Below, in pieces: positions 3,038 to 20,634 of a stretch of DNA of 24,877 bases. This DNA comes from Candidatus Micrarchaeota archaeon (lineage in GTDB: Archaea > B1Sed10-29 > WALL01 > WAMD01): NCBI GenBank assembly GCA_027077895.1, contig JALWQZ010000023.1, forward strand, positions 1 to 24,877, written 5' to 3'. The translations under genes and the position numbers were made by a program. Numbering within the stretch: position 1 is the stretch's first letter; the number at the start of each line of letters is the position of its first letter. Under the pieces are notes generated by a model. That model made no database searches. It saw only the letters and a program-made list of their open reading frames with translations, and was not told the DNA's origin.

Positions 3038-3835
3038 ATGTTGGTGGCTTTTCCGGTTGATGAGAATGATGGATTGGGTTCTAGAATCTCTGACCATTTT
3101 GGGAGAGCCACTGGGTTTCTGCTGTTTGACACAGAATCTGAAAACGTTAAGTATGTGGATGCACCCACTCATGCCTTCGGTTCGTTTCCACAGTTTCTAG
3201 GCGATCTGGGAGTCAACGCCCTGGTTTGCAATAACATTGGGGATAAGGCTAGAGAACTTATAGGTAATCTAGGTATAACTGTGTTCTCCCAGTTTAGTGG
3301 AAAGGTCAGCGATGCTCTTGAGCATTTGATGCCTAAATTCGAGGAGATTGACAAACAGATTAGAGAAGAGGAAGAGCGCAAGAAAGCACAAGCACTTGCT
3401 TTACAACGCTCAATTGAAAGACACTTAACGTACACTATCATTGCACTCGATGGCAGTTTTTTGGTTATTGTTAAACTGGATGAAGAAAATTTTGTCCTAG
3501 TTGATTTGGATGGTGAAGGGTGCAATATGAGTTATGCCTCTTTTTCTGGTGAGGTGGATTCAGACGATAGCAAGGATAAGTACCTTGCACTGAGATTTAG
3601 GTACACGCGTTTTCTAGGTAAGCAGGAGGTCTCGGTTGAATCAAATGAAGGAGTGGTGAAGGTAGGAACATATCTGTTTGAAATTAGAGAGGAAGAGAAG
3701 TGTGAGGTACCAGACAAGGTTATGAATGCCCTTTCAGGATTAGACAAAGATGTGGAATCAACTGGCGTAAAAGACAGATTAAAGGCGATAAACGATTGGC
3801 TCTATGAACTAGTTCATTCAAGAGAGCATGAATAA
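3038..3835 (+). CDS. Two-domain protein: N-terminal NifX/NifB/MTH1175-type (dinitrogenase FeMo-cofactor family, PF02579-like) domain, coiled linker, uncharacterized ~130-aa C-terminal domain
   Basis: Residues 1-100 MLVAFPVDENDGLGSRISDHFGRATGFLLFDTE...GVNALVCNNIGDKARELIGNLGITVF match the NifX-like family signature (xIAxPxDxxxLSxHFGRAxxFxxYD...G...). A KE-rich linker follows, then a domain I cannot assign. Start is 2 nt after the rfcL stop. Confidence 0.65.
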   Translation: MLVAFPVDENDGLGSRISDHFGRATGFLLFDTESENVKYVDAPTHAFGSFPQFLGDLGVNALVCNNIGDKARELIGNLGITVFSQFSGKVSDALEHLMPKFEEIDKQIREEEERKKAQALALQRSIERHLTYTIIALDGSFLVIVKLDEENFVLVDLDGEGCNMSYASFSGEVDSDDSKDKYLALRFRYTRFLGKQEVSVESNEGVVKVGTYLFEIREEEKCEVPDKVMNALSGLDKDVESTGVKDRLKAINDWLYELVHSREHE

Positions 3836-4773
3836 ATCCATCTATCTAAACTCTTGTGAACTCTAATATGCAGTTTGGTTTTAATTTTCCATTTGGCATT
3901 TTCTAGCATATCGTCCATCTCGATTGGCCCGACTATTACTAGGTTACTGGTGTGCTCTCTAAATTTCTTAATTGCTCTAGGATAGAACTCGTTTATCCCT
4001 GACTCCATCATAGAACTCCTACCGTACGGCATATCGGTTACTATTGCATCGTAGCGCCCTCCCCTCCATTCGAAGAAATTGGCGTTCACAACATTTCCAT
4101 CTACACCATAGTACTCTATGTTTCTTTTAGCGCCACTTGCCCACCTCTGATTGAGTTCTACACCTGTAGGTTTTATCCCCATTAGCCCTGCTTCTATCAA
4201 GATCCCACCGACACCACAGAATGGATCTAGTAAGGTTTGGCCTGGCTTTACTCCAGATAGGTTTATTAGGAATCTTGCCAGTTTGGGTTTCAGGCTAGTT
4301 GGATGAAAAACTGGTCTTCTCTGTGGATGCCTTATGGCATAATCCTTTGGGTCGTTTTTCCAAATTCTCCTCCCTATTAATGTCTCATCGTTTATCACAA
4401 TTAGGTCGAATACTATCCTGGGATTATCTAGATTCGGATGCCCATGGATGCTGTTTGCGAATGTCTCCTTTATCTCTTGTGAATCTACTTTGGAATTGAA
4501 TTTCCAAACGACTGGTTTAAACCCATCGTAAACTTCTCTGAACCTGTCTAATCTCCTTATCTGGGAGATGTCTCTAATGCTTCCCCTCCATACTACTCTA
4601 GTCCCTACCTTTGCGTATGCCAGTCGCCGGATGAAATTTTCACCACAATCGTCAGATACAACCACTCTCTCACTAACCTTTTCGAATCCACACTTGTACG
4701 AACTAGCCAACGCTCTGAATTCTTCCTTGCCTAGTTCTCCATCTAGTTCACCACTGAGTACAACCGCAAGCAC
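3814..4773 (-). CDS. THUMP-domain tRNA (guanine-N2)-methyltransferase, Trm11/TrmG10-like
   Basis: SAM-binding motif I LLDPFCGVGGILIEAG. Motif IV is DMPYG, a variant of the DPPY/NPPY amino-methyltransferase motif. N-terminal THUMP-like region. GTG start. The 3' end overlaps the convergent gene by 22 nt. Confidence 0.7.
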   Translation of the reverse strand: MLAVVLSGELDGELGKEEFRALASSYKCGFEKVSERVVVSDDCGENFIRRLAYAKVGTRVVWRGSIRDISQIRRLDRFREVYDGFKPVVWKFNSKVDSQEIKETFANSIHGHPNLDNPRIVFDLIVINDETLIGRRIWKNDPKDYAIRHPQRRPVFHPTSLKPKLARFLINLSGVKPGQTLLDPFCGVGGILIEAGLMGIKPTGVELNQRWASGAKRNIEYYGVDGNVVNANFFEWRGGRYDAIVTDMPYGRSSMMESGINEFYPRAIKKFREHTSNLVIVGPIEMDDMLENAKWKIKTKLHIRVHKSLDRWIYSCSLE

Positions 4774-4827: not shown

Positions 4828-6777
4828 ATGGCAACACGTACCAGGAAAAAAACTAAGTCAAAAAAGAAAGTGAGAGGGAAGAATGTGGCATCTAAGGCAG
4901 TTGATAAGGACTATCCTAGTTTAGACCTTGATATCAAAACAACGAAAGATTTGTCCGTGCCACCAAAACTTATCGACCAAATAATAGGGCAAGATTATGC
5001 TGTTGACATTGTTAAAAAGGCAGCAAAGCAGAGGAGGAATGTTTTTCTCCTTGGCGACCCTGGTACCGGGAAGTCCATGCTCGCCCAGGCAATGGCTCAA
5101 CTGTTGCCTGTGACCGAACTAGAAGATATTCTGGTCTATCCAAATCCAATGGACTCGAACACGCCTAAGATACGGGTTGTCCCGGCGGGTGAGGGAAGAA
5201 AGATTGTCGAGAAGGAGAGAACTAAAGAATTGGCGGAGTCTGCCAATTCTAGGTTCATATCTAGTTTGATTCTTCTCTTCTTGTTGATGATTCCATGGTT
5301 CTTTTTGTACATGGGTTGGATGTCAGAGATCATGGCCGCTGCTTCTCTAGTTGTGGCTGGTCTCTTGGGCATGGGGATAATATTATCCACCCAAGTAAAG
5401 GGGACCAACCCAGAGAAGAGTATGGCACCAAAGTTATTGATTGACAATTACGATAAGAAGACGGCACCATTTGTTGATGCTACAGGCGCTAGGGCAGGCG
5501 CATTGCTAGGGGATGTTAAACATGATCCTCTACAGTCTGCTGGGCTAGGTACACCCCCACATGTTAGGGTCGTTCCAGGCATGATTCATAGAGCCCATAA
5601 GGGAGTTCTTTTTATAGATGAAATTGCCACACTTAGCCCAAAGTCTCAGCAGGACTTGTTGACTGCGATGCAAGAAAAGAAGTTCCCGATAACAGGGCAG
5701 AGTGAACTTAGCAGTGGAGCGATGGTTAGAACAGAGCCGGTCCCATGTGATTTTATACTTGTTGCAGCAGGTAATGAGATTGATCTTCAAAAAATGCACC
5801 CAGCATTAAGATCAAGGATTAGAGGATACGGGTATGAGATCTATTTGAACAATACAATGCCAGATACTCCTGAGAATAGAAGGAAGTTAGCAAGGTTTGT
5901 TGCTCAGGAAGTTATCAAGGATGGTAAGATACCCCACTTTACCAAGGAAGCAGTTGAGTTAATAATTCTAGAGGCGAAGAAGAGAGCAGGCAAGAAGAAT
6001 AGGCTAACATTAAAATTGAGGGATTTGGGTGGTCTGGTTAGGGCCGCAGGTGATATTGCAAACTCAAAGGGCCATAGATATGTTCTACCTGAGGATGTTG
6101 AAGATGCTAAGAAATCTGCCAGGACTCTGGAGGAGCAGGTCGCAGACAAGTACCTAGAAGAGAAGAGAGAGTATGAGGTGTTTTATGTTAAAGGAAAGAA
6201 GGTCGGAAGGGTTAATGGCCTGGCAATCTTTGGTAATGGTGGCCTTGTGTTGCCCATAGAAGCCAATATATCCACTAGCCAGTCTAAAGAGGGAAGGATT
6301 ATTGCCACAGGCAAACTGGGTGAAATCGCAAAGGAAGCAGTTTTGAATGTTTCTGCTATAATAAAGAAATACAAGGGGGCGTCGTTAGCAGGGAAGGACA
6401 TACACATTCAGTTCCTGCAAACGTATGAGGGAGTCGAGGGTGATTCTGCATCAGTGAGCGTTGCTACCGCAGTTGTATCTGCATTGGAAGGTATCCCAGT
6501 TAGACAGGATATTGCGATGACAGGCTCTCTAACTATAAGGGGTGAGGTCCTGCCTGTTGGTGGTGTTACGCAGAAGGTTGAAGCAGCCATAGATGCCGGA
6601 ATGAAGGCAGTCATAATCCCAGAGGCGAATAAGGACGATGTGTTCATACCAGGGGAGAAGAGGAACAAGATACAAATATTGACTGCAAAGAATGCCGTTG
6701 ACGTTTTCAAGTATGCCCTAGTTGATTCTAGTAAGAAGAAGCAGTTGATATCAAAACTGGCAAAGGTTATAGATTAA
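4828..6777 (+). CDS. lonB: Archaeal membrane-bound Lon protease (LonB)
   Basis: Walker A GDPGTGKS. Two transmembrane helices inserted in the AAA+ module (SLILLFLLMIPWFFLYMGW...LVVAGLLGMGIILS). C-terminal protease domain with Ser-Lys dyad context GDSASV. 649 aa, no intein. Confidence 0.9.
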   Translation: MATRTRKKTKSKKKVRGKNVASKAVDKDYPSLDLDIKTTKDLSVPPKLIDQIIGQDYAVDIVKKAAKQRRNVFLLGDPGTGKSMLAQAMAQLLPVTELEDILVYPNPMDSNTPKIRVVPAGEGRKIVEKERTKELAESANSRFISSLILLFLLMIPWFFLYMGWMSEIMAAASLVVAGLLGMGIILSTQVKGTNPEKSMAPKLLIDNYDKKTAPFVDATGARAGALLGDVKHDPLQSAGLGTPPHVRVVPGMIHRAHKGVLFIDEIATLSPKSQQDLLTAMQEKKFPITGQSELSSGAMVRTEPVPCDFILVAAGNEIDLQKMHPALRSRIRGYGYEIYLNNTMPDTPENRRKLARFVAQEVIKDGKIPHFTKEAVELIILEAKKRAGKKNRLTLKLRDLGGLVRAAGDIANSKGHRYVLPEDVEDAKKSARTLEEQVADKYLEEKREYEVFYVKGKKVGRVNGLAIFGNGGLVLPIEANISTSQSKEGRIIATGKLGEIAKEAVLNVSAIIKKYKGASLAGKDIHIQFLQTYEGVEGDSASVSVATAVVSALEGIPVRQDIAMTGSLTIRGEVLPVGGVTQKVEAAIDAGMKAVIIPEANKDDVFIPGEKRNKIQILTAKNAVDVFKYALVDSSKKKQLISKLAKVID

Positions 6778-6778
6778 G

Positions 6779-6783
6779 TTTTT
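6779..6783 (+). terminator. Short oligo-T tract just after the lon stop (possible archaeal termination signal)
   Basis: TTTTT begins 2 nt after the TAA. This is ambiguous because the C/D sRNA starts 25 nt downstream and could be processed from a lon read-through transcript. Confidence 0.25.
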
Positions 6784-6807
6784 ATTGGTTATGTAACTAA
6801 AGATAGT

Positions 6808-6863
6808 GGCAATGATGACATCGCCCCAGTCTGATGGGTGATGACCAGAGTAACTACTGAGCC
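6808..6863 (+). ncRNA. C/D box small RNA (2'-O-methylation guide sRNA)
   Basis: Terminal stem GGC (6808-6810) / GCC (6861-6863). C box AATGATGA 6811-6818. 12-nt guide catcgccccagt 6819-6830. D' box CTGA 6831-6834. C' box gTGATGA 6838-6844. 12-nt guide ccagagtaacta 6845-6856. D box CTGA 6857-6860. Box order, the 12-nt spacers and the 4-nt D'-C' spacer are canonical archaeal geometry. Confidence 0.7.
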
Positions 6864-8947
6864 TAGTGCCTCCGCTTTGGCATGTGTATATACATATAGA
6901 ACGCAAGGACTAGGAGGCCAATTGCGATTGCCAATGCTGCTATAAACACCAATGTTAGTGTGTAACTGAAGTTTGAATAAGGCGGGACATTTATTTTTAT
7001 TGACTTCTCATAACTGTTTCCAAGTTCATCAAACCATTTTATAACTATACTGTGGGGTCCAGGGGATAGTTTCTTTTGTATTTTGTTTATTATGTCATAC
7101 TGTACACCATCTATATACAACTCAGTGTTTACTGGATTGTTCTTCTTGTTCAATGATACCAATACGAGTCCTTCCTTGCCAACACTTACATTTGCTGTTA
7201 CGTTTGGTTTTGGAAGTACTGTTATCACAACTGTCCTCTCGTCTTCACTGCCCCCACCTGTTACCTTTACAGACACTGTTTTTAGTCCTGATGTTTTGTA
7301 GTTTATTGGGAATGAGAATTTTTTCCTCTCAAGAACATCAGTTACCACACTCTGTTTTTTTACACCATCAAAGAAGTCTACATTGACAGACACTGCCTTT
7401 TCTGCCCTGTTTGTGACATAGAATGAAACGGTTCCGTTTTCGCCAACCAACACTTGTTTTGGGTATGTTAATTGCGAGATACTTATTTTGTTCCCTAGTG
7501 TTGTGTTTATTGGATATACCCATAGACCTCCCTTTGATGTAGTTATCATTAGATCCGATTCTCCTATGTGATCCGCGTTGAATTTTAGCATAGCATTCAT
7601 GCCAGAATCTGAGGAATACTGGTTGTCGTATGCGCCATAAACATACACGTTTTGGTTTGAATTTATGTATGCATATATCTGGTCTCCGAGTTGTGGTTTT
7701 TTGTTTGATAGAGCGATACTTAAACTGGGGGTATCCACTTTCTTTATCTTTAAGTCTATTGTCTTGACTGGGAGTAAATCGGAGTTTGCTGTCAAACCAC
7801 AGGTATATATGTATGAAGGATTTAGGTTTTCTGTTCTCACAGCCCAGTACACTAATTTGCTTTGGCCTGGTTCTATTATCACAACCTTAGTTGGATTCTG
7901 TATACCCACAACCTTTACCTTCCCTACACATGGAGTTAGTGTGACAGGCACTATTGTGAATCTATCTGTTGTTAGGTTGAGCCCCACAAATGTACCAGAG
8001 TTAAAACCCACTATGTTTGAAGGCCGAATCACGCTGACATTTACAGGTGGGTTTCCCTGGACTAAATTATCTATGTGTATACTCCCTATTCCTGAACTGA
8101 AATACTCCCCACCTGTTCCTTCTGTTTTCCAATCCACCGTTCCCCCTTCTCCGATATACCTTATTCTTGAATCAAATTTCCTTTCCTTTGTCCTGTAGAA
8201 TGGAATATGTGTGGCGTCCATACTCCCTGCTATGTCCCATGTAGGATCAAACGGGACCCATTTCCCTAGATACACCTCTGCCCACATATGCCCTGTTGGT
8301 CCCTGATTACCGTATGCAATTCCACCCACAAACCTAGCGGGGTATCCTAAACTTCTGGCAAGTGTGACAAATAGGGTTGCATACTCTACGCATACACCCT
8401 TTCTGTACTGTATTATTTGATCAGCACTTAGGTATTTTCCAGCATAGGATTCGTCATAGGTAATGTAATCATGCACCCACTGCATCAGTGTTGCTAGTTT
8501 TTGGAAGTCATCTACCTTTCCAGCAGTTATGTTCTTGGCTAGGTTTTTGAAGTAAGCCTCGTTGCTAGGCACTCCCTCACTTGGTTGCGTATACTCTAGA
8601 TATGGGCTTATATCATAAGACTTTGGAATGTTCTTTATTGTTTGGGCTTTAGTGTTAACATGGCAAACAACATCGTAGTGGACTATATGTGGGGGATACT
8701 TGTATTCCAGATGGGCCACGCTCACACCATTGAATTTAACGACGCTGGCGTTGCAGTGGACCGTTTGGAAACTTGTATTTTGGGGTATTGTCAGGTTCAG
8801 ATCAATTTTCTGGACTGGCCCATCAACAGTTAGGACCCCACTCACGTAAATAGTGGATTCCATCTCTGTTACTAGTTGCGATTTTACATCTGAGAGACCT
8901 AGTGGTATTATCAACAGCAGTATTATAACGAAGTAATACGCTTTCAT
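6863..8947 (-). CDS. Transglutaminase-like cysteine-protease-fold surface protein (signal peptide, TGase core, beta-rich repeats, C-terminal TM anchor)
   Basis: N-terminal signal peptide MKAYYFVIILLLIIPLGLS. TGase core GVCVEYATLFVTLARSLGYPARFVGG...GHMWAEVYLGKWVPFDPTW (Cys-His-Asp). About 11 N-x-S/T sequons. C-terminal TLTLVFIAALAIAIGLLVLAFYMYI + HMPKRRH. Confidence 0.75.
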   Translation of the reverse strand: MKAYYFVIILLLIIPLGLSDVKSQLVTEMESTIYVSGVLTVDGPVQKIDLNLTIPQNTSFQTVHCNASVVKFNGVSVAHLEYKYPPHIVHYDVVCHVNTKAQTIKNIPKSYDISPYLEYTQPSEGVPSNEAYFKNLAKNITAGKVDDFQKLATLMQWVHDYITYDESYAGKYLSADQIIQYRKGVCVEYATLFVTLARSLGYPARFVGGIAYGNQGPTGHMWAEVYLGKWVPFDPTWDIAGSMDATHIPFYRTKERKFDSRIRYIGEGGTVDWKTEGTGGEYFSSGIGSIHIDNLVQGNPPVNVSVIRPSNIVGFNSGTFVGLNLTTDRFTIVPVTLTPCVGKVKVVGIQNPTKVVIIEPGQSKLVYWAVRTENLNPSYIYTCGLTANSDLLPVKTIDLKIKKVDTPSLSIALSNKKPQLGDQIYAYINSNQNVYVYGAYDNQYSSDSGMNAMLKFNADHIGESDLMITTSKGGLWVYPINTTLGNKISISQLTYPKQVLVGENGTVSFYVTNRAEKAVSVNVDFFDGVKKQSVVTDVLERKKFSFPINYKTSGLKTVSVKVTGGGSEDERTVVITVLPKPNVTANVSVGKEGLVLVSLNKKNNPVNTELYIDGVQYDIINKIQKKLSPGPHSIVIKWFDELGNSYEKSIKINVPPYSNFSYTLTLVFIAALAIAIGLLVLAFYMYIHMPKRRH

Positions 8948-8985
8948 GCCAATACTAAAATATCCGAGATTAAAAATAGTTTTGG

Positions 8986-10263
8986 TCAGCGGCTTATTTC
9001 AATACCACCGGGTTTTAGCATTGTGATCCTGTTTATGCTTATGTCCTTCTTCTCTTTGCCCATGTGAACTGTGATGATACCCCTCTTTGACTGAATTCCT
9101 ACAACTTCCCCAACTTCTCTATTCTGGTGAGTTACTATCATGCCTCTCTTTATGTGCCTGAGCATGAACTTCCTATACGACCTGTTTATTATTGCGAATC
9201 CGAATAGGGTAATGATTATTGCGACGATTGTGATCATTATTATGTCGATGAATGTGGGCCCCTCAAACAATGTTGATGACCACGCTAGGAAGAATTTTGC
9301 GCTTATGTCTATTATTAGATATGCTGCTATTGCTGTCACCATTGCTTTTCCATATCTCTTTATCTTTATTACCTCGCCCCTATTATACATGTCTACTATC
9401 CTGCCGCTATAAAACAGGAGTACACTTAGCAGGAGCAGGCCTAGTGATCCTATAACAAATGAGATGACCGGAGGTCCTAGACTGGCCTGGCCAACTGCCA
9501 ACAGTTTCTCGTACGTGTCGTTTGCTGAGTCTATCCCTGCCCATACAGATAATGCGAGCACTAAAAGAGTTGAAATGTATAGTGGAAAACTGGCCCTTTC
9601 GAAACTAGTTGTCTTTCTGAATGATGTAATCCAGTGTGCTAGCGCATCCTCTAGCCCGAAGCCCTTGAATATTAGGTATAGTCCTAGGACTCCAAGTGTT
9701 ATGCTTAGCGACAGTTTCTGCATCCCCATGGTGTAGACTATTGCATATAAGACTAGGATTATACCTGGAAGGCCGAATATCAACCTAGCAAAGTGCGGGT
9801 CTTTTAGGACTTCTTTTATTAGGTAGAATGAACTCTCTATTGCCTGGGATTGTTTTATTACCACCCTCTGTATATTTGCGATTTTAGTGATCCCCTGTAT
9901 TACGGGTATCAACTGTTCGTCATCAGCACCATCGCTCACCAGCACGACGTCTTCAAATTTGTATTTGTCCTTTAGGTTTTCTAACTGCCTTGCAACTTCC
10001 CTGTCAGCCTTTATCCCCCTGTCTCTGTGGCCAGTTATGACTGCGATTTCTACATCTTCACCGAGTTCCTTCATCTCTCTGTACGCCTTTATTGCACCAA
10101 ATATTGCATTTGCGTCTGATTCCCCAGGATCAGATATTGCTAGAATTTCAGCGGCCTTTATACATGCCTTTTCTCCAACTATGGGACCCTTTAGGGAAGT
10201 CTTTTTTCCTAGATCATCATCCCTATCCACTGTTATGACCAAAGTTTTAACCTTCCTGACCAT
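8986..10263 (-). CDS. Conserved archaeal membrane protein: cytoplasmic alpha/beta N-domain, polytopic core, small C-terminal beta domain (resembles the DUF373 family as I recall it)
   Basis: N-terminal 150 aa soluble (VKTLVITVDRDDDLGKK...VVLVSDGADDEQLIPVIQGI), then about six hydrophobic helices, then a soluble C-terminus (GMIVTHQNREVGEVVGIQSKRGIITVH). The family assignment is from memory. Confidence 0.45.
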   Translation of the reverse strand: MVRKVKTLVITVDRDDDLGKKTSLKGPIVGEKACIKAAEILAISDPGESDANAIFGAIKAYREMKELGEDVEIAVITGHRDRGIKADREVARQLENLKDKYKFEDVVLVSDGADDEQLIPVIQGITKIANIQRVVIKQSQAIESSFYLIKEVLKDPHFARLIFGLPGIILVLYAIVYTMGMQKLSLSITLGVLGLYLIFKGFGLEDALAHWITSFRKTTSFERASFPLYISTLLVLALSVWAGIDSANDTYEKLLAVGQASLGPPVISFVIGSLGLLLLSVLLFYSGRIVDMYNRGEVIKIKRYGKAMVTAIAAYLIIDISAKFFLAWSSTLFEGPTFIDIIMITIVAIIITLFGFAIINRSYRKFMLRHIKRGMIVTHQNREVGEVVGIQSKRGIITVHMGKEKKDISINRITMLKPGGIEISR

Positions 10264-10276
10264 AATTTAACACTAA

Positions 10277-10304
10277 ATTTATATAGCGCGGCTAAGTTTA
10301 TATA
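10277..10304. promoter_or_regulatory. Divergent promoter region with two TATA-like boxes (aaatttatata; gtttatatat)
   Basis: A/T boxes 18-28 nt upstream of the minus-strand ATG (10263) and the plus-strand stomatin ATG (10328). GGGGG RBS at 10316-10320. Confidence 0.35.
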
Positions 10305-10327
10305 TCTGACTGTAGTAGGGGGTTGTG

Positions 10328-11371
10328 ATGAGGTTTACTAAGAGGCAAGTTAAGAAGCCAGTAGATAGGCGGGACGTCTATATATTTCTTTTTATACTCA
10401 TAATTGGATTTTTCGTTTTGTTAGGTTTGTTTTATTTGACCTTGATAGGCAATCTCGGGTTCTTGATAGGTTTGTTGGTGCTACTCGGTATTCTATATTT
10501 TATCACTCCACCATTTATAGTTGAAGTCAAAGAGTATGAAAGGGCAGTTGTGTTTAGGTTAGGGAGATTCGTTAAAATCCTTGGCCCAGGTCTGCATATT
10601 TTGACACCGTTCACAGATGAGGCAGTTGTAGTTGATATGAGAGTTCAAACAATAGACGTGCCGAAACAAAAGGTGGTCACAAAGGATGAAATTGAGATTA
10701 CAATTGATGCTATCATATACTACAAGGTCGTTGACGTAAAGAAGGCAATCATAGATGTTAGAGATTATAGAGAGGCAGCCGTTAGTGCCACTTATGCTCA
10801 TTTAAGAGATATAATCGGGAAGATGTCACTTAGTGAGGTGCTCTCGAATATAGATAGAATCAACAAACTCGTTTATCATGGTTTAAAGCCGATGGCGGAG
10901 GAGTGGGGGGTCTCTGTTGACAAGGTTGAGATAAAGGAAGTTTACCTTCCAGATGAGGTTATCAATGCAATGCACAGGAAGAAGGCAGCAGAGGAATTGA
11001 AGAAGGCAGCAGAGCAGGAAGCATTGGCTAATGCCATACGTATAGATGCGGTCAGGGAGGCTGCAGGTAAATTGAATGAACCAGCGTTGCAGTACTTGTA
11101 CTTAGAGGCACTCAAGAAGGTGGCTGAGGGTAGGTCTAGCAAGATTTTGTTCCCTGTTGAGTTGAGCAAGATGGCAGAGAGAATTGCTGGTGTCACTGGC
11201 AAGGACTACAAAACGGTTGAGTCAGATTTGAAGAAACAGTTTAGAGAATTTGTCAAGAACGAGGAGATTAACGTAAAGGGCTCAAATAAACATGTTAAGG
11301 AGTATCTAAAAAAGAGGCCAAAGACAAACAGAGTGAAGACAACCCACACCCGCACCAAGGTGTCCAAATGA
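10328..11371 (+). CDS. Stomatin/prohibitin-family (SPFH/band 7) membrane protein
   Basis: N-terminal TM hairpin, then SPFH core EYERAVVFRLGRFVKILGPGLHILTPFTDEAVVVDMRVQTIDVPKQKVVTKDEIEITIDAIIYYKVVD, then a coiled-coil C-terminus. ATG at 10328 is preferred to GTG 10325. Confidence 0.85.
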   Translation: MRFTKRQVKKPVDRRDVYIFLFILIIGFFVLLGLFYLTLIGNLGFLIGLLVLLGILYFITPPFIVEVKEYERAVVFRLGRFVKILGPGLHILTPFTDEAVVVDMRVQTIDVPKQKVVTKDEIEITIDAIIYYKVVDVKKAIIDVRDYREAAVSATYAHLRDIIGKMSLSEVLSNIDRINKLVYHGLKPMAEEWGVSVDKVEIKEVYLPDEVINAMHRKKAAEELKKAAEQEALANAIRIDAVREAAGKLNEPALQYLYLEALKKVAEGRSSKILFPVELSKMAERIAGVTGKDYKTVESDLKKQFREFVKNEEINVKGSNKHVKEYLKKRPKTNRVKTTHTRTKVSK

Positions 11372-12647: not shown

Positions 12648-12687
12648 CTATATGCCCCCAAATTCTACTGCTTTTTTTGGTGGTAAT

Positions 12688-13287
12688 ATGGAGCCGGTAG
12701 TACCTGGAGAGTTTGTTGGATATGAGGAAGAGTTTATGCCAGGATTTGGTACTTACTCTGAGAACGGGGATGTTTACTCCTCAAACATTGGAGAACTTGA
12801 AAAGGATGTCAAGAAGAGAGAGGTCAAGGTTAAAGTTAAGACCAGAATCCCAATGTTCTTTAAGAGAGGAATGTCAGTTTATGGGAGAATTGCTCAGATG
12901 ACGGATAACATTGCGGTTGTTGATATTATTCCAATGGTAGTTGGACAGTTTTACTACGTTCCTAGACCAGTTACACACATTCTTCCAATATCTGAAGTCA
13001 AGCGAGGGTATACTACGAGTATGAGGGATGAATTTAGGATTGGAGATATAATAAAGGCAAAGATACTGAGCATGGATCAGCACACGGTCACGCTTACGAC
13101 AAAGGCGATGGATTTAGGTGTCGTTAAAGCGTTTTGTACGCAGTGTAGACACCCGTTGGTTAAAGACAAGAATGCATTGAAGTGCCCAAATTGCGGCAAC
13201 ATTGAGCATAGAAAAGTTTCTGTTGATTATGGGAAGATAGGAGGGATATTGTATGAAACTGAAGGTTCAAGAGGAGAAAGGGAATGA
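12688..13287 (+). CDS. csl4: Exosome complex RNA-binding subunit Csl4
   Basis: N-terminal VVPGEFVGY motif, central S1 domain, C-terminal zinc ribbon CTQC...CPNC. Start at ATG 12688 (RBS GGTGGT) rather than the track's 12652, which lies inside the promoter. Confidence 0.85.
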   Translation: MEPVVPGEFVGYEEEFMPGFGTYSENGDVYSSNIGELEKDVKKREVKVKVKTRIPMFFKRGMSVYGRIAQMTDNIAVVDIIPMVVGQFYYVPRPVTHILPISEVKRGYTTSMRDEFRIGDIIKAKILSMDQHTVTLTTKAMDLGVVKAFCTQCRHPLVKDKNALKCPNCGNIEHRKVSVDYGKIGGILYETEGSRGERE

Positions 13288-13546
13288 GTTGATAATTGAG
13301 ATTGAGGGCGAAGAGCATAGTTTCCCAGCCTTGGTTGCATGGGCCTTGTTGCAGGATCCAAATGTCGAGTTTGCTGTTTATGATAAGGAGCACCCTTTAG
13401 TTGGCAATGCTAAGTTGTACGTTAAGACGAAGAGAGGTTCTCCTTGGAATGCACTGAAGAAGGCAGTTTCAACGATAGAAAATGAATTTGATGAATTGCT
13501 AAAATTGACTGAGGAGAAAAAGACAACCAAGAAGAAAAAGAAGTGA
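13253..13546 (+). CDS. rpoL: DNA-directed RNA polymerase subunit L (Rpo11)
   Basis: MKLKVQEEKGNELIIEIEGEEHSFPALVAWALLQDPNVEFAVYDKEHPL matches the Rpo11/RpoL consensus. Lys-rich tail. Overlaps the csl4 end by 35 nt. Confidence 0.85.
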   Translation: MKLKVQEEKGNELIIEIEGEEHSFPALVAWALLQDPNVEFAVYDKEHPLVGNAKLYVKTKRGSPWNALKKAVSTIENEFDELLKLTEEKKTTKKKKK

Positions 13547-13550
13547 TATT

Positions 13551-14126
13551 GTGATAAAACCCTTGGCTAGGCAGATTGGCTTTGACGATGGTCACTTCTT
13601 GAAGGCCGATAATTATACGCCATTAGTTGGGACTGTTGTTAGGGGCAATGAATTGATTGAAGGCTTTTTGTTTGATAGGGTATCTGTTGATGGTGATGAC
13701 TCTGGTCAAGTTGTTTCTAAACTTATTTCTAATTCAAAGTTTTATGACACATTGAAGGTAGTGTTTTTTAAGGGTGTCACGCTCGGCGGTTTTAACGTGA
13801 TAGACATACGGGATCTCAGTAATGAACTGTCCTTGCCTGTGATTGTTGTCTTGAGGAGACTTCCTGATATGAAAAGTATAGAGGCAGCATTGTTGAAGGT
13901 TGAAAACAGTAAAGGGAAACTTGAGAGGATGAAGCACGCTGGTAGGATATATGAGGTGCCCAGGCCTAAGGGGAAGTTGTACTTCCAAAAGGCAGGTGTT
14001 GGCAAGAGGGAGGCAAAGGAATTAATTGAGATGAGTATAAAAACAGGGAACATTCCAGAGAGTCTTAGGATAAGCCATTTAATTGCCAGTGCGGTTACAC
14101 TAGGTGAAAGTAGGAGGAGGGCGTGA
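13551..14126 (+). CDS. DUF99/UPF0215 family protein (RNase H-like fold, function unknown)
   Basis: IGFDDGHF near the N-terminus matches the family's N-terminal IGIDDG signature as I recall it. Length about 190 aa. GTG start. Confidence 0.6.
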   Translation: MIKPLARQIGFDDGHFLKADNYTPLVGTVVRGNELIEGFLFDRVSVDGDDSGQVVSKLISNSKFYDTLKVVFFKGVTLGGFNVIDIRDLSNELSLPVIVVLRRLPDMKSIEAALLKVENSKGKLERMKHAGRIYEVPRPKGKLYFQKAGVGKREAKELIEMSIKTGNIPESLRISHLIASAVTLGESRRRA

Positions 14127-14914
14127 TGAAACTAAATCTATCCAGATATGACCCAGCAGAGTGGTTAAAAAAGAGGTACAACCTAGAGGGCTGGAAGGCA
14201 GAGTTGGTCGATGTTGCAGTAGGCTTTCTCATTGCTGCGGTTATATACTATGGGATAATGCCACTGTTTTTAGGGGCCTACCCTCCGGCAACAATCGTGG
14301 AGAGTTGCTCAATGGCTGGAACACTGCAGGTTGGGGATGTTGTTTTGTTGAAGGGTATTAGTTTTAACGAAATAAATGCACCTTTAGTTAGGCTCAACAC
14401 CACGAACATCAGTTTTAGGATTGTTCCTAACACCTGGAGAACCGCTCAGGCTAGGGAACTGATATTCAAGGACGGCACCCCTAGGGTTGTCAATATAACT
14501 AGAAATGGGGACATTGTTGTTTACCACTCCCCACTGTCTGGTAAGCAGATTATACATAGAGTTATTGCGAAGGTTGTCACATCTAACGGAGGGCATTTTT
14601 TGATAACTAAGGGGGATGCCAACACAATCCCTGATCAGGCCAAGATAACATGTGCCCAGTGGGTGGTTGAGGGCAAGTACTACCGATGTGTTGAACTTTC
14701 TCCAACTATAAATGAGACGTGCCAGTATCCTAGAGACAAGGGGTGGCCAGGGTGTATATCCAGTCCTGTTCCGATGAATCATGTCGTTGGTAAGGTAATA
14801 TTTGATATACCTCTAATTGGGCAGGTGAAACTCATACTCCTTGATATTGTGACACTTGGGCATGCTTACCCTACAGGGGTTTTCTGCAAGGCACCATTGT
14901 TCCAGATAAAGTAA
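14126..14914 (+). CDS. Archaeal signal peptidase I (S26B/Sec11-like) with a large insertion
   Basis: N-terminal TM helix, then catalytic Ser box ESCSMAGTLQVGD, later ITKGDAN. ATG overlaps the upstream stop (GTGATG). RBS AGGAGGAGG. Confidence 0.75.
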   Translation: MKLNLSRYDPAEWLKKRYNLEGWKAELVDVAVGFLIAAVIYYGIMPLFLGAYPPATIVESCSMAGTLQVGDVVLLKGISFNEINAPLVRLNTTNISFRIVPNTWRTAQARELIFKDGTPRVVNITRNGDIVVYHSPLSGKQIIHRVIAKVVTSNGGHFLITKGDANTIPDQAKITCAQWVVEGKYYRCVELSPTINETCQYPRDKGWPGCISSPVPMNHVVGKVIFDIPLIGQVKLILLDIVTLGHAYPTGVFCKAPLFQIK

Positions 14915-14921
14915 GATAAAG

Positions 14922-14930
14922 TTTTTAAAT
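14922..14930 (+). promoter_or_regulatory. TATA-like box TTTTTAAAT at the head of the superoperon (upstream of rpl15e)
   Basis: Implies a ~65-nt 5' leader containing the GGCG...CGCC inverted repeat (14973-15001) and the GGAGGTG RBS (15005-15011). Confidence 0.35.
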
Positions 14931-15018
14931 GGTCTGTGCCAAAATAGACATGTTCTAGTTACGGCGAATGTTGGCGATGCGAAATGCTATGCCAGAACGC
15001 CGTGTTGGAGGTGTTTGA

Positions 15019-15597
15019 ATGAGTAGTGCATATAAATACATTCAGAAGAGTTTTCAGGAAGCATACAAAAACAGGTCTGATGAGTTGAGGAGTAGGCTTG
15101 TTGAGTGGAGGAGAGACCCTGCAATAGTTAGGGTTGACAGGCCCACGAATATTGCCAGGGCTAGAAACCTGGGGTATAAGGCTAAACAAGGGTTTGTCAT
15201 TATCAGAGTCAGAATAAGGAGAAGTTCTGGAAGACATGAGAGACCGGACCATGTTAGAAAGCCTAGCAAGATGGGAGTTTTGAAGAAGAAGAGAGGAAAG
15301 AGCATACAGTGGATGGCAGAAGAAAGGGCAGCAAGGAAGTTCACTAACCTAGAGGTTTTGAACTCCTATTATGTTGCTGAAGATGGCAGGTACTACTGGT
15401 ATGAAGTTATAATGGTTGACCCGAACCATCCATCTATAAAGAACGACCCGAAGATAAAGTGGGTTGCGAAGGTGAAGGGAAGGGTCTTCAGAGGGTTGAC
15501 GTCTGCTGGCAGGAAGGCTAGAGGACTGAGAAACAAGGGAAGGGGCTCAGAGAAGGTTAGACCCGGTGTGAGGGCAAACCAAAGGAAGGGTAAGTGA
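15019..15597 (+). CDS. rpl15e: 50S ribosomal protein L15e
   Basis: [17 protein letters not shown]..., [12 protein letters not shown], basic C-terminus. Canonical L15e. Confidence 0.9.
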
Positions 15598-15598
15598 A

Positions 15599-16012
15599 AT
15601 GATAACAGGGGTTGATATTGAAGCCTTTTGCTACCCCACAGAGAACATAGAAAAAGTTAAACAGGCGTTCATGACAGTGTCTCCAGTCCCGCCAGAAATC
15701 ACCCACGCCACAACCCACTTTGGTTCAAATGTTTCTGTTCTTAGGGCCAGGTTGAGCAGAAAGTCCGAGATACGTGATTTTTTGCATAGACTAACTAGTT
15801 TGCCTGAAGCGGACAAGGATAAACTTAGGGCAGAGATAAGGTCTAGAGTAGACGATAGGGGAAATTTCTACATACGGTTTGACAAGTTTAGGGCGCTGGA
15901 TGGCGAACTTGATATAACTGACTCAAGTGATGCCATAAAGGTGTCAATCAAGTTTACCACTTACCCGAGATCATTGGATAAGGCAATTGAGGAGATAGAT
16001 GAGTTGATATGA
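15599..16012 (+). CDS. COG1325/DUF54-like predicted RNA-binding protein of the exosome superoperon
   Basis: 137 aa. Its position between rpl15e and the RNase P subunits matches the conserved superoperon. The call rests on context; the N-terminal CYPTENIEKV motif is consistent only from vague recall. Confidence 0.55.
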   Translation: MITGVDIEAFCYPTENIEKVKQAFMTVSPVPPEITHATTHFGSNVSVLRARLSRKSEIRDFLHRLTSLPEADKDKLRAEIRSRVDDRGNFYIRFDKFRALDGELDITDSSDAIKVSIKFTTYPRSLDKAIEEIDELI

Positions 16013-16566
16013 AGTACTATGACATCCTTGTGGATCCCAAGTTTGAGGGGGTCATTGAGAGATTAGGGTATTCCAAACTCGGTGTGGGTATCCAGGTTTT
16101 GGACAGTAACGAGATAGATATGGCTTATGCTAGGGACAAACTGGTTTTTGTTAAATCTTCAAATTCACTGGAGAAGAACAGAAGAATCTTGAAGTCACCG
16201 TGTGATGGAATTGTTGACCCTGTTTTTCCTAGACTACTGGCATTGGATTACCCTGCGATGACGATTGCCAAGGACAACGATTGTTCAATTATTCTGACTT
16301 TGTCTAATCTTGAAAAGTATACTGGAATACAAAGAGCAAATTACCTATCAAGAACTCGCCTTCTGGTAAAAATGGCAACAAAAAAAAGGCTGAGGGTAAT
16401 TCTGACTACTGGCGCATCTAGCGAGTTTCAGTTGAGGACACCAATCCAGTTGATCTCATTTGGCAAGGTTTTGGGCATGACAGATAGTCAGGCAAAGAGG
16501 GCAATTGGGCCTGCGGTTGAGCATATTAGGAGGAGGGTTTATGATACCGCCAACTCTGAAAGTTAA
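16009..16566 (+). CDS. rnp3: RNase P protein subunit Rpp1/p30 (Rnp3)
   Basis: The C-terminal segment LRVILTTGASSEFQLRTPIQLISFGKVLGMTDSQAKRAI aligns with Pyrococcus Rpp30. ATGA overlap with the upstream gene. Confidence 0.7.
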   Translation: MKYYDILVDPKFEGVIERLGYSKLGVGIQVLDSNEIDMAYARDKLVFVKSSNSLEKNRRILKSPCDGIVDPVFPRLLALDYPAMTIAKDNDCSIILTLSNLEKYTGIQRANYLSRTRLLVKMATKKRLRVILTTGASSEFQLRTPIQLISFGKVLGMTDSQAKRAIGPAVEHIRRRVYDTANSES

Positions 16567-16900
16567 TAAGAGGTACATTGCATTTAGGATTATTGCAAAG
16601 CAGGTGTTTACCGAAAAGCAGGTATTACAGGCCATGAGACAGTCTGTTTTATCATTTGCTGGTGAAGATGGATATGCTTGTTCTAATTTTGATGTTGTTT
16701 ATTATGATCAAGAGAACATGGTGGGGGTAGCAAGGGCGACAGATTCAACCCTAGATACGATTATTCTCTCACTGAGTTTAGTAGACAACATACAGGGTAG
16801 GCGTGCTGGAGTTCTGATTACAGGTGTCTCTGGGACTGTCAAGAAGGCAATGCGCAAACTCCTTAAAGAAAATATATTTAAAGGAGATACCACTCAATAA
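16541..16900 (+). CDS. rnp2: RNase P protein subunit Pop5/Rpp14 (Rnp2)
   Basis: MIPPTLKVNKRYIAFRII... (RYIxFxI signature of Pop5). About 119 aa from ATG 16541; the track's TTG 16505 extension is less likely. Overlaps the rnp3 end by 26 nt. Confidence 0.65.
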   Translation: MIPPTLKVNKRYIAFRIIAKQVFTEKQVLQAMRQSVLSFAGEDGYACSNFDVVYYDQENMVGVARATDSTLDTIILSLSLVDNIQGRRAGVLITGVSGTVKKAMRKLLKENIFKGDTTQ

Positions 16901-16915
16901 TACCGAGGTGATTGT

Positions 16916-17647
16916 ATGTATCCTCCTTCTGCGTCGGCTTATGATCGTGCAACGACTGTATTTAGTCCGGATGGAAGGTTGTTCCAAGTAGAGTATGCAA
17001 AGAAGGCAGTTGAAAAGGGGACTACTGCTGTTGGTCTAGTTTTCAATGGTGGCGGATTAATCGCCACTGACAAACTCATAGACTCTAAACTAGTCAACGT
17101 AAAATCTGTTGAGAAGGTATTCAAGATAGATGAGCACATAGGTGCGGTGGCTTCTGGTCTGGTTGCCGATGCTAGGAAGTTGATAGACCACGCCAGGGTT
17201 GAAGCCCAGAGAGAGAGGGTTGTCTACGGGGAGTGCATCCCTGTTGAAACGCTAACTAGGTCCATATGTGACTTGAAACAGTCCTACACACAGTACGGTG
17301 GTGTTAGGCCTTTTGGTGTTTCGCTTATAATCCTAGGTGTTGACAGGACAGGAACTAGGATGTTTGAGACTGATCCTAGTGGTGCGTTTTCGGAGGTTTA
17401 TGCTTCTGCCATCGGGCAAGGCAAATCCACTGTGGATGAAATGTTTGAGAGTAAGTATGACAAAAACCTCAAGTTTGAGGATGCCGTAAAACTGGCTGTC
17501 AAAGCCTTGAGGGAGGCGAATAAGAATAATTCAACATGGGATGGTCTTGAGGTTTATTACATAACCGAGAAGGAGAAGAAGTTTAAGGAATTACCAAAAG
17601 GTGAACTTGAAAAGATTGTTGGAAAAACGAAGAGGCGATCCAAATGA
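16916..17647 (+). CDS. psmA: Proteasome alpha subunit
   Basis: YDRATTVFSPDGRLFQVEYA N-terminal signature. RBS GAGGTGAT. Confidence 0.95.
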   Translation: MYPPSASAYDRATTVFSPDGRLFQVEYAKKAVEKGTTAVGLVFNGGGLIATDKLIDSKLVNVKSVEKVFKIDEHIGAVASGLVADARKLIDHARVEAQRERVVYGECIPVETLTRSICDLKQSYTQYGGVRPFGVSLIILGVDRTGTRMFETDPSGAFSEVYASAIGQGKSTVDEMFESKYDKNLKFEDAVKLAVKALREANKNNSTWDGLEVYYITEKEKKFKELPKGELEKIVGKTKRRSK

Positions 17648-18354
17648 TACCTGTAGATAAGGCAGTTGTAGTTAGGTACGAAAAGGGTGAGGAGAGGTTT
17701 GAGATACTTGTTGACCCCGAGAGAGCATGGGAGATAAAGGAGAAGAAGGATATCACTTTGATAACTAATCTAGATGATATCCTAGCGTCACTAGATGTGT
17801 ATAAGGATGCTAGGAAGGGAGAAAGGGCCAGTGAGTCAGAGGTCCAGAAGCATTTTAACTCAGACGATAAGAAGTATATAATATTCAAGATAATCACAGA
17901 TGGCGAAATGCACTTGACTACTGATCAGAAGAGGAGGATGCAGGAGGAAAAGAAGAGGAAGATAATCAACTTGATAGCAAGTCAGGCAATTGACCCAACA
18001 ACAAACCTACCTCATCCTGTATCCAGAATTGAGAGGGCGATAGAGGAAGCAGGTGTTCACATTGACCCGTTGAAACCTGCAGAAAGGCAGGTAGATGAAA
18101 TCGTAGATAAATTGAGACCGATAATACCAATAAAGATTGCAAAGGCTAGAATTGAAGTGAAGATCCCAGCCCAGTATGCATCTAGGGTGTATGGCTACCT
18201 AAAACAGTTGAAGCCGGTTAAGACTGATTGGCTGAATGATGGCAGTTTATCTGCGGTCATTGAGATACCTGCTGGTATGCAGACAGAAGTTTTTGACAAG
18301 TTAAACTCAATGACACATGGAACAGTGTACTCCAAATTGATTCAAGTGATATGA
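17644..18354 (+). CDS. sdo1: SBDS/Sdo1 ribosome maturation protein
   Basis: FYSNN-domain-like N-terminus (VVVRYEKGEERFEILVDPERAWE) and a three-domain length of 236 aa. ATGA coupling to psmA. Confidence 0.8.
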   Translation: MIPVDKAVVVRYEKGEERFEILVDPERAWEIKEKKDITLITNLDDILASLDVYKDARKGERASESEVQKHFNSDDKKYIIFKIITDGEMHLTTDQKRRMQEEKKRKIINLIASQAIDPTTNLPHPVSRIERAIEEAGVHIDPLKPAERQVDEIVDKLRPIIPIKIAKARIEVKIPAQYASRVYGYLKQLKPVKTDWLNDGSLSAVIEIPAGMQTEVFDKLNSMTHGTVYSKLIQVI

Positions 18355-18367
18355 GTTCACGAAACTA

Positions 18368-18386
18368 TTTTAAATGGTTTAAATCA
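18368..18386 (+). promoter_or_regulatory. Internal promoter (TTTTAAAT / TTTAAATCA boxes) upstream of rrp4, followed by a small hairpin GGGAGtctCTCCC (18411-18423) in the leader
   Basis: The only sizeable gap (95 nt) inside the superoperon. A/T boxes about 60-80 nt upstream of the start. Perfect 5-bp stem/3-nt loop. RBS GAGGTGA at 18446-18452. Confidence 0.35.
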
Positions 18387-18449
18387 TAATCATGATGTAA
18401 TTGGAGATCAGGGAGTCTCTCCCCATCTATTTGTTTAAATTCAAGCGAG

Positions 18450-19085
18450 GTGAATGATTTGAGGGAGATTGTTATACCTGGAGAACCTTTGGGTGAAGCG
18501 AATCAGGATAGACTGCCGTATGGTGTCTTCAGGGAAGGAGACAAGTTGTATTCTGCCCTATACGGGCTTGTAGAGCCGGACAAGGGCATTAGAATAACCC
18601 CGTTGAATGGTAGGTACCTTCCACGAGTAGGCGATGTTGTTATAGGTATTGTTATAATGGCTAGGCATTCTGGGTATGTGGTGGATATAAATTCCCCATA
18701 TGTGGGGCATTTGTCCATTCCTAGGCATTCGAATTTGAAATTCCCAAGACTAAACCCTGGGGATGTTGTAACTGTGAAAATTGCCAGTAAGAATGAAGTT
18801 GGAGATGTTGCCCTAGAGTCCCCTAGGCGGCTCGTGAAGGGGAAGTTAATAGAAATCTTGCCGACTAAGATACCAAGAGTGTTCGGAAAGAGTGGTTCAA
18901 TGCTGGATCTGATAAAGAACACGACAGGAGTGCAAATGATAGTTGGCAGGAATGGAAGGATATGGCTACGTGGTGAGCCTGATGCAATAATAAAGGCAGA
19001 GCGGGCAATTAGGTTCATAGAGGAGAACGCTCACAAGTACGGTGTTACCGATGCTGTTAAGAAAATGTTGGAAGGTGATATCTAA
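18450..19085 (+). CDS. rrp4: Exosome complex subunit Rrp4 (S1 + KH)
   Basis: [10 protein letters not shown] (compare Sulfolobus IVVPGELLAE), S1 then KH (VGRNGRIW). GTG start (or TTG at 18459). Confidence 0.85.
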
Positions 19086-19837
19086 TGGGAGGTCACAATC
19101 CTGGAATAAAATTATTGGATAAAGATGGTAAGAGGATAGATGGTAGGGGTCTTTATGACCTTAGACCTATAAAGATGGAGATAGGAGTTTTGAAGAAGGC
19201 AGATGGTTCTGCTTATCTAGAATGGGGTGGGAATAAGGTTATGGCTGCGGTATATGGCCCCAAACCAGTCATGCCTAGGCACCTAGCGAACCCGTACAAG
19301 GCAGTCCTTATGTATAGATACAACATGGCACCGTTCAGTGTTGATGACAGGAAGAGGCCAGGGCCGGATAGGAGGTCAATAGAGATTTCCAAGATATCCA
19401 GAGATGCGTTGGAGAGAATCGTGATGACAGAGTACTTCCCAAATACCATGATTGAGATATTTGTTGAAATACTGCAAGCAGATGCTGGTACTAGGTGCGC
19501 TGCTCTAACTGCAGCGTCTTTGGCGCTGGCAGATGCAGGGATACCCATGAGAGACCTAGTGGCCGCTTGTGCTGCTGGTAAGATAGACGGAAAGGTTGCC
19601 CTTGATTTGAAGAAGGAAGAGGACAACTATGGAGAGTCGGACATGCCCCTTGCAATATCTCCTAGGACAGGCGACATACTCCTGTTCCAGATGGATGGCC
19701 TTCTAACCAAGGAAGAATATCTAGAATCCCTTCACCTAGCATTGGAGGGAGCCAAAAAGGTTAGTGAGATGCAGAAAAAGGCCTTGAAGGATAAGTACAA
19801 AATTGAAACATTGGGTGGTGAAGATGACAAAGTTTGA
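19085..19837 (+). CDS. rrp41: Exosome complex exonuclease Rrp41 (RNase PH-like)
   Basis: [49 protein letters not shown] coupling to rrp4. Confidence 0.9.
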
Positions 19838-20633
19838 AGATGAAATGCTTTGGAATATAAAGTCAGATTATGTTCACAGACTTGCCCAGCAGGGGCTTAG
19901 GGTAGACGAGAGAGGGCAGTTTGATTACAGACCAATAGAGATAATCCCCGACTATGTAACAAGACCTGCTGGCTCTGCTATGGTTAGAATGGGGAATACT
20001 ACAGTCATTGCAGGGGTTACGATGGATGTAGGTACTCCTTTCCCAGATACGCCTGATGAGGGAATTCTGATAACTAATGCAGAGTTAGTTCCCCTGGCCT
20101 CGCCTAATTTTGAGCCAGGCCCACCTGACGAGGATTCAATAGAGTTTGCTAGGGTTGTTGATAGGGGAATAAGAGAAGGGCAGGTAATTGATTTGAATAA
20201 GTTGTCAATCGAGCCTGGCGAGAAGGCTTGGATGGTGTTTATTGACCTGCATGTATTGGACTACGATGGGAACTTGTTTGATGCAGGTGCACTTGCTGCG
20301 ATGACTGCATTGAACGTTGCAAAGGTGCCAAAGTATGAGGACGAAAAGATTATAAGGGAAGAAGTGTCTATGAATATGCCTATTAAAAGACAGGTAGTCG
20401 AGACCACATTCGCTAAGATAGATGATTTCCTAGTGGTTGACCCAGTACTAGACGAAGAGAAGTCTGCAGACGCTAGGCTTACAATTGCCACCACAGATGA
20501 TGGATACATTTGTGCGTCACAGAAGGGTGGTCCAGGACCAATAAAGGTTGATGAAATAGAGCAAATGATTGATTTGGCATTTGAAAAGGGAGACTACCTG
20601 AGAAAAATTATGAAGGATGCAATAAAGAAGTAA
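19824..20633 (+). CDS. rrp42: Exosome complex subunit Rrp42
   Basis: RNase PH-like inactive subunit ([17 protein letters not shown]..., [15 protein letters not shown]). ATG 19824 with RBS GGTGGTGAAG is preferred to the track's 19803. Confidence 0.9.
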
Positions 20634-20634
20634 G

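Follow-up and report, generated by a model that had tools for sequence, protein, structure and literature searches.

Our analysis of a 24,877-nucleotide archaeal contig (the window, meaning the whole stretch of DNA that was analysed) makes it very probable that positions 6808-6863 on the + strand are the gene of a 56-nt dual-guide archaeal box C/D sRNA, with guides to 23S rRNA at G2251 and, most likely, U2438. This sRNA is a canonical further member of a very well known family and its reading involves no new mechanism. A previous sequence-only reading had proposed a box C/D guide sRNA at this site, and it was borne out by structural features that are present as described, by syntenic conservation and by Rfam matches that are exclusively C/D. 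The 85-bp convergent gap that it described was also found as such, with the lon ORF ending at 6777 and the convergent stop codon lying at 6863-6865. The features of the locus are as follows.

4828-6777, + strand: archaeal LonB protease gene (Pfam Lon_C and LonB_AAA-LID; homologues), the syntenic anchor upstream
6779-6786, + strand: TATA-like box, TTTTTATT, putative promoter element 21 nt ahead of the sRNA 5' end
6808-6810, + strand: 5' half of the terminal stem, GGC, paired with GCC at 6861-6863; invariant in the four orthologues
6811-6818, + strand: box C, A-AUGAUGA (RUGAUGA consensus at 6812-6818); invariant in the orthologues
6819-6830, + strand: D' guide, 12 nt, CATCGCCCCAGT (RNA CAUCGCCCCAGU), antisense to the 23S P-loop
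6831-6834, + strand: box D', CUGA (sequence, pattern match, orthologue alignment)
6835-6838, + strand: D'-C' spacer UGGG, 4 nt (K-loop); first base U or A among the orthologues
6839-6844, + strand: box C', UGAUGA (GUGAUGA when G6838 is included)
6845-6856, + strand: D guide, 12 nt, CCAGAGTAACTA (RNA CCAGAGUAACUA), most likely antisense to 23S 2435-2446
6857-6860, + strand: box D, CUGA (sequence, pattern match, orthologue alignment)
6861-6863, + strand: 3' half of the terminal stem, GCC, whose C6863 doubles as the final stop-codon base of the convergent gene
6863-8947, - strand: transglutaminase-like protein gene (Pfam Transglut_core), the same neighbour as in L001, L006 and L008

The base-by-base layout of 6808-6863 given in the sequence-only reading proved exact and all four boxes are without a consensus mismatch (C, RUGAUGA; D, CUGA; D', CUGA; C', (G)UGAUGA at 6838-6844). 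The C-D' and C'-D guide spacers both measure 12 nt in the window, where the class range is about 12 (10–13), a 3-bp GGC/GCC stem closes the C/D kink-turn, and the 4-nt D'-C' loop lies within the class range of about 3–9 nt. The sRNA and the stop codon of the convergent gene at 6863-6865 (CTA on the + strand, equivalent to TAG) have C6863, the final sRNA nucleotide, in common, an overlap that had also been described from the sequence. A regular expression for the full architecture matched once in the window and not at all in 300 first-order Markov shuffles of it, while a relaxed pattern gave 0.02 matches per shuffled window. The minimum free energy fold of the naked sRNA was unremarkable (z = -0.6), which is expected because the shape of this protein-scaffolded RNA is set by L7Ae-bound kink-turns.

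Covariance-model searches with Rfam reported no match anywhere in the window at gathering thresholds. In E-value mode, the sole matches in the 24.9-kb window were C/D families at 6808-6863, every one of them on the + strand, which agrees with the earlier claim that only this strand gives a C/D reading. The best model was snoPyro_CD (RF00095), which scored 39 bits where 45 are required for gathering (E = 5e-7 locally and 5e-5 window-wide), and its paired model positions 1-3 and 56-58 correspond to the terminal stem. Further sub-threshold matches at the same position were to sR44, sR1 and SNORD31, where the SNORD31 (RF00089) match scored 27 bits against a gathering score of 40 and aligned the P-loop guide and the boxes alone. 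In the covariance-model check suggested by the sequence-only reading, the E-value-mode matches are thus C/D only and no family reaches its gathering score. A sub-threshold score is no refutation here because the archaeal C/D families of Rfam are built around particular guides, and such a score, with all four boxes aligned over the full length, would be expected of a new guide combination.

Three further lineages (L001/L002, L006/L007 and L008) have the same sRNA at the same place, flanked by lon and the transglutaminase-like gene. Pairwise identity between lineages was 95–98% for the sRNA, in comparison to 76–82% for the last 200 Lon residues, 36–44% for lon third codon positions and 38–70% for the spacer between lon and the sRNA. 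Only three sites of the sRNA varied among the orthologues: the guide base adjoining box D' is U or G, the K-loop starts with U or A, and there is one indel. The indel concerns the 5' end of the D guide, where the three relatives have one G that the window lacks, and the D guide can be written across both forms as CCAG[G]AGUAACUA. The earlier statement that both guides are exactly 12 nt therefore holds for the window but not for the three orthologues, whose D guide is the 13-nt CCAGGAGTAACTA (RNA CCAGGAGUAACUA; L001 7062-7074, L006 7033-7045, L008 2516-2528). As the putative target has a G run at its end, the 5'-terminal CC can stay paired in both forms with no bulge. As the guides are as constrained as the boxes, it can be argued that both of them have conserved targets.

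The position of the sRNA relative to the convergent gene is less uniform, with the ORF ending 10 nt inside the RNA in L006, overlapping it by the stop codon only in the window and L001, and leaving a 51-nt gap in L008. No sRNA copy was found downstream of lon in the relatives L003-L005, L009, L135 and L136, where other genes are located. The 694-aa transglutaminase-core protein (6863-8947, - strand in the window) was present only in lineages that have the sRNA at this locus, and in relatives lacking its gene lon is followed directly by DUF373, serpin or other genes. The sRNA and the transglutaminase-core gene may have been gained or lost together.

Complementarity of the D' and D guides was computed against the rRNA of other organisms in place of the host 23S, where the archaeal reference consisted of the 23S and 16S alignments of seven archaea in the supplement of Dennis et al. 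2015 (PMC4644070). The 12-mer target given earlier for the D' guide is its correct reverse complement (ACUGGGGCGAUG) and could be placed on the 23S P-loop. On the E. coli rRNA operon the best site of this guide was 23S 2247-2258 (ACUGGGGCGGUC), with 11 contiguous pairs at 2247-2257 including one G.U, and the fifth guide base upstream of box D' (N+5) lies opposite G2251 in E. coli numbering. In the same register, 10–11 contiguous pairs were formed with six archaeal 23S fragments reading GCUGGGGCGG(C/U)A, and across the 23S and 16S alignments of these seven archaea the P-loop was the sole site with the complement core CUGGGGCG. On this complementarity, the D' guide very likely targets the P-loop of the host and would direct the formation of Gm2251. 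The guide also forms 10 contiguous pairs with helix 44 of E. coli 16S rRNA at 1483-1494 (ACUGGGGUGAAG; L138, rrsH). This site was rejected as a D' target since its sequence is absent from the seven archaeal 16S rRNAs, and it is unlikely to matter in the host.

Guide-directed methylation at G2520, which is equivalent to E. coli G2251, was previously predicted in three species (Dennis et al. 2015, PMC4644070), where the tables and alignment labels assign the guides to Pca sR36, Tte sR7 and Mka sR13. In yeast, the SNORD31 homologue snR67 is responsible for Gm2619, a universally conserved modification that corresponds to Gm2251 of E. coli (PMC11121408).

The reverse complement of the D guide is UAGUUACUCUGG in the 12-nt form, as given correctly in the sequence-only reading, and UAGUUACUCCUGG in the 13-nt form, and a perfect target would have the motif UAGUUACUC(C)UGG. 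Its core, GGAGUA[A/G]CU, is common to the D guide of Nanoarchaeum equitans sR14 and the D' guide of M. maripaludis sR106 in the same register, and the A/G difference between our guide and these two has its counterpart in U versus C at position 2437 of the rRNA. The published target table lists an sR14 with 23S U2712 as its target (Dennis et al. 2015, PMC4644070). The attribution of this entry to N. equitans is ours, based on the label N14 above the alignment block concerned and on the complementarity of the guide to this block. Column U2712 of the alignment corresponds to U2438 in E. coli, located in AAAAG(U/C)UAC(C/U)CCGGGGAUAACAG (counted along the block, with the E. coli anchors checked). 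The most likely placement of the D target is 23S 2435-2446 (AAGUUAC[U/C]CCGG) with U2438 at N+5, and we lean towards this assignment, which would give Um2438. If it is true, host 23S 2434-2447 can be expected to read AAGUUACUCCGGGG.

The extent of this pairing depends on one rRNA position. The D guide expects U2441, which among the sequences compared is present only in Nanoarchaeum and E. coli, whereas C is found in five of the seven archaeal 23S sequences. With U2441 there are nine contiguous Watson-Crick pairs for the 13-nt guide and eight for the 12-nt guide of the window; with C2441 there are six contiguous pairs, an A.C mismatch and then one to two pairs before a second mismatch. M. maripaludis sR106 on its own rRNA is in the C2441 situation, and its authors gave no predicted target for this sRNA (Dennis et al. 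2015, PMC4644070). The guides of Sac sR128, Iho sR425 and Pca sR16 are complementary to 23S 2437-2443, where our N+5 reading places their target at C2441, three bases beyond U2438. Judged from these complementarities, methylation seems to be concentrated in this stretch of 23S rRNA, which lies beside the peptidyl-transferase centre.

Alternatively, the RNA may be a genuine C/D sRNA in which only the D' guide is functional, while the D guide is an orphan or has another target such as the 427-439 equivalent, a tRNA or another RNA. We consider this possible but distinctly less probable. It draws on the internal A.C mismatch that C2441 introduces in five of the seven archaeal 23S sequences, on the window copy being one guide base shorter than its relatives, and on the U2438 match resting on the rRNA of other organisms and not that of the host; in addition, about 28% of Pyrobaculum guides are without a recognisable target (PMC7994747). 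A second, weaker candidate for the D guide is E. coli 23S 427-439 (UAAAUACUCCUGA), which forms 10 of 13 Watson-Crick pairs with the 13-nt form. However, the archaeal equivalents of 427-439 differ in length and sequence, and no 7-mer of the D target was found elsewhere in the seven archaeal rRNA alignments. The D guide is also conserved like the boxes across lineages whose neutral sites are saturated, and its core and register match those of NeqsR14 and MmasR106, where by our own estimate a match of this kind would be expected by chance about 0.01 times among approximately 1000 listed guides. This conservation and this match argue for a functional D guide, with U2438 as the favoured target.

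Other placements of the D target were also searched. A target beside the P-loop or within helix 81 (where Tte sR7 is directed to U2544) was rejected for the data searched. A scan of metagenome contigs with CTGGGGCGN{0,30}TAGTTACTCCTGG, in which the P-loop is followed by the D target within 30 nt, returned four chance loci, none with rRNA. A search for 23S rRNA of the host clade in genome contigs with TAGTTACTCN{1,4}GGATAAC returned at least 120 stretches, and none of those listed was in the 23S context around GGGAUAACAG. No match was obtained from viral contigs with AGTTACTCCNGGGRATAACAG, and a longer copy of our contig (ENA JOHN19-1 scaffold_1169, 37,355 bp) contained no rRNA. A complementarity scan of all loci of the clade found only the antisense strand of the sRNA itself and G.U-rich chance matches. 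There are no tRNAs in the window as possible guide targets. In L003, Rfam identified a tRNA spanning 134 nt at 10404-10537 on the + strand (61 bits) that was missed by ARAGORN in bacterial mode; it is presumably an intron-containing archaeal tRNA, its intron is without C/D boxes, and it showed no complementarity to the guides.

In characterised archaeal C/D RNPs, the C/D kink-turn and the C'/D' K-loop are bound by L7Ae, Nop5 and fibrillarin then join the scaffold, and fibrillarin places the 2'-O-methyl group on the target nucleotide opposite the fifth guide base that precedes box D' or D. By analogy, L7Ae would bind the GGC/GCC-closed kink-turn and the C'/D' K-loop of the sRNA reported here, followed by Nop5 and fibrillarin; each 12-nt guide would then pair with rRNA and fibrillarin would methylate the nucleotide at N+5. 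The D' guide is predicted to produce Gm2251 in the P-loop, the loop that binds the CCA of the P-site tRNA, and the D guide would most likely pair with the 5' strand of helix 74 to produce Um2438 next to the peptidyl-transferase centre. We infer expression, RNP assembly and the methylations themselves from these known particles. The 24.9-kb window contains no L7Ae, Nop5 or fibrillarin gene. In the relatives L003/L004, whose Lon is 86% identical, a fibrillarin gene (PF01269) was found at the contig edge (11846-11932, - strand). It lies a few kb from lon and adjoins a gene for a TmcA/NAT10-type RNA acetyltransferase (8288-10360), and these neighbours indicate that several rRNA/tRNA modification genes are located close together in this clade.

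The sRNA has the same orientation as lon and begins 30 nt past the stop codon of that gene, and the sequence-only reading had raised the possibility that it is processed from the lon 3' UTR. This position was confirmed, but a conserved TATA-like box favours a promoter of its own. An A/T-rich box was found 20–21 nt before the first G of the sRNA in all four orthologous loci, and this spacing was held although the distance between lon and the sRNA shifts from 30–32 to 56–57 nt and the sequence in between has diverged. The box fits an archaeal promoter centred near -26, and judging from its placement the sRNA is probably transcribed from this TATA-like promoter at 6779-6786. The T-run of the box may also be the oligo-T terminator of lon. 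A review gives the share of archaeal C/D sRNA genes with a TATA-like box as only about 20% and also mentions that many C/D sRNA genes overlap ORF ends (PMC7994747).

If the sRNA were instead cut from the 3' UTR of lon mRNA, it would lack a promoter of its own and its level would be coupled to lon expression. Most archaeal C/D sRNA genes are indeed without their own promoter and are processed from longer transcripts (PMC7994747), and the T-run could be a read-through terminator. In comparison to the shared strand and short distance that this origin would explain, the constant 20–21 nt between box and sRNA in four lineages, held through a changing lon distance and a diverged spacer, makes it rather unlikely, and transcription from the TATA-like promoter remains our preferred reading.

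A regulatory function was also considered, in which a kink-turn in the 3' UTR of lon or of the transglutaminase gene binds L7Ae without any methylation-guide function. L7Ae is reported to bind kink-turns in archaeal mRNAs (PMC5539422), and the element overlaps the end of the convergent ORF. However, a simple kink-turn does not require two full box pairs at guide-length spacing, the guides can pair with known rRNA methylation sites and have the correct N+5 geometry, and the guide sequences are constrained as strongly as the boxes, which leaves a purely regulatory element very improbable. The chance juxtaposition of short motifs in an intergenic spacer is a negligible prospect in spite of boxes of only 4–7 nt, as the reading is effectively refuted already by conservation (95–98% identity against approximately 40% at neutral sites), together with 0 matches in 300 shuffles and a window-wide Rfam E-value of 5e-5.

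The archaeal genes of the window include LonB, the RFC large subunit, L10e, the exosome superoperon and prefoldin. The superoperon (12652-21000, + strand) encodes Csl4/Rrp4-like, RpoL, endonuclease V, L15e, Rpp30 and proteasome alpha proteins as well as SBDS, Rrp4, Rrp41, Rrp42 and L37ae, and Rpp14 was called on the ENA copy L134. A contig labelled Diapherotrites (L136) has its long-range gene order in common with the window from lon to the endonuclease V gene. The closest Lon proteins (77–86% identical) came from metagenome assemblies (NCBI, ENA and Logan), and the nearest named Lon proteins (approximately 61–69%) were labelled Candidatus Diapherotrites or Micrarchaeota, followed by Thermococcales with 62–64%. 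From these similarities we infer an uncultured archaeal host, with Diapherotrites (DPANN) as the label of its nearest named relatives.

Protein methyltransferase genes were also observed around lon. A TIGR01177 / UPF0020-type methyltransferase gene is located divergently upstream of lon in the window (3814-4773, - strand), shows weak similarity to Trm14 and RlmL, and keeps its position in every relative examined, including those without the sRNA. In L135, where the sRNA is absent, the convergent gene after lon (3493-4182, - strand) encodes an RNA 2'-O-methyltransferase of the SpoU class. RlmB makes Gm2251 in E. coli, and the NCBIfam model for RlmB carries that name. The L135 gene was rejected as an RlmB-type Gm2251 enzyme replacing the guide, as it scored 207 bits with TrmJ/YjtD versus 49 bits with RlmB; by these scores it is probably a tRNA C32/U32 methylase that is unrelated to Gm2251.

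Further C/D sRNAs were not found in the window (regular expression with at most one box mismatch; Rfam in E-value mode), in the other loci of the clade (regular expression) or in 68 kb of related loci (Rfam). Published C/D sRNA counts are 26 for Nanoarchaeum, 7 for M. maripaludis and 52–128 for thermophiles (PMC7994747). The low density of C/D genes, obtained here with strict criteria on a small sample, suggests a small repertoire. This can be extended to a more speculative and rather doubtful interpretation, namely that the sRNA is one of a minimal retained set that couples Gm2251 and Um2438 in one particle and that its P-loop guide is a true orthologue of that of SNORD31/snR67. If the P-loop guide were truly orthologous, it would be older than the archaeal-eukaryal split. 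The minimal-set interpretation adds that the dual guide might act as a folding chaperone, joining strands of domain V that lie 187 nt apart at the peptidyl-transferase centre.

Both targets are already among the published archaeal guide-target predictions, and Gm2251 is also established in eukaryotes and bacteria. The interest of the sRNA is mainly due to the lineage of its host and to the combination, in one RNA, of two sites at the peptidyl-transferase centre. It adds a conserved guide-RNA gene to genomes that are known only from metagenomes, where non-coding RNAs are rarely annotated, and it provides two concrete predicted methylation sites at the peptidyl-transferase centre, paired in a single molecule. 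It also suggests that this lineage installs Gm2251 of the P-loop in an RNA-guided manner as in eukaryotes, and not by a stand-alone enzyme as in bacteria.

In comparison to known archaeal box C/D sRNAs (snoPyro_CD, RF00095; Pyrococcus sR44 and sR1), the sRNA is alike in its length of about 56 nt, consensus boxes, 12-nt guides, short terminal stem, 4-nt K-loop spacer and intergenic site abutting an ORF end. It differs from the archaeal box C/D families of Rfam in its guides, for which reason no family reaches its gathering score, and in its host, an uncultured archaeon where theirs are cultivated thermophiles. Among the sRNAs assigned to the P-loop, Pca (Pyrobaculum calidifontis) sR36 has the same G2251-equivalent target with the guide AAGCCGUCCCAGU|CUGA, checked to be in the same register, but its P-loop guide is the D guide whereas here it is the D' guide. 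Thermoproteus tenax (Tte) sR7 and Methanopyrus kandleri (Mka) sR13 share the G2520 assignment (from the tables only), but their partner guides are directed to U2544 in the loop of helix 81 and to G2490, respectively, and not to U2438. Conversely, N. equitans sR14 (D guide AAGGAGUAGCUG|CAGA) and M. maripaludis sR106 (D' guide ACGGAGUAGCUU|CUGA) have the core and register of our D guide, while their other guides are unrelated to the P-loop.

Outside the archaea, bacterial RlmB introduces the same modification, Gm2251, but is a stand-alone SpoU-class protein enzyme that works without a guide RNA. A counterpart of the D' guide is found in eukaryotic SNORD31 (U31), whose consensus D' guide ACCGCCCCAGU|CUGA, also (A)CCGCCCCAGU|CUGA, differs very little from CAUCGCCCCAGU|CUGA and has the same register. 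SNORD31 and snR67 are unlike the sRNA described here in being eukaryotic, in their degenerate C'/D' boxes and in a different second guide (Um2724 for snR67). Based on guide and box comparison, the archaeal sRNA would work like SNORD31 at the P-loop site but is not a member of the SNORD31 family.
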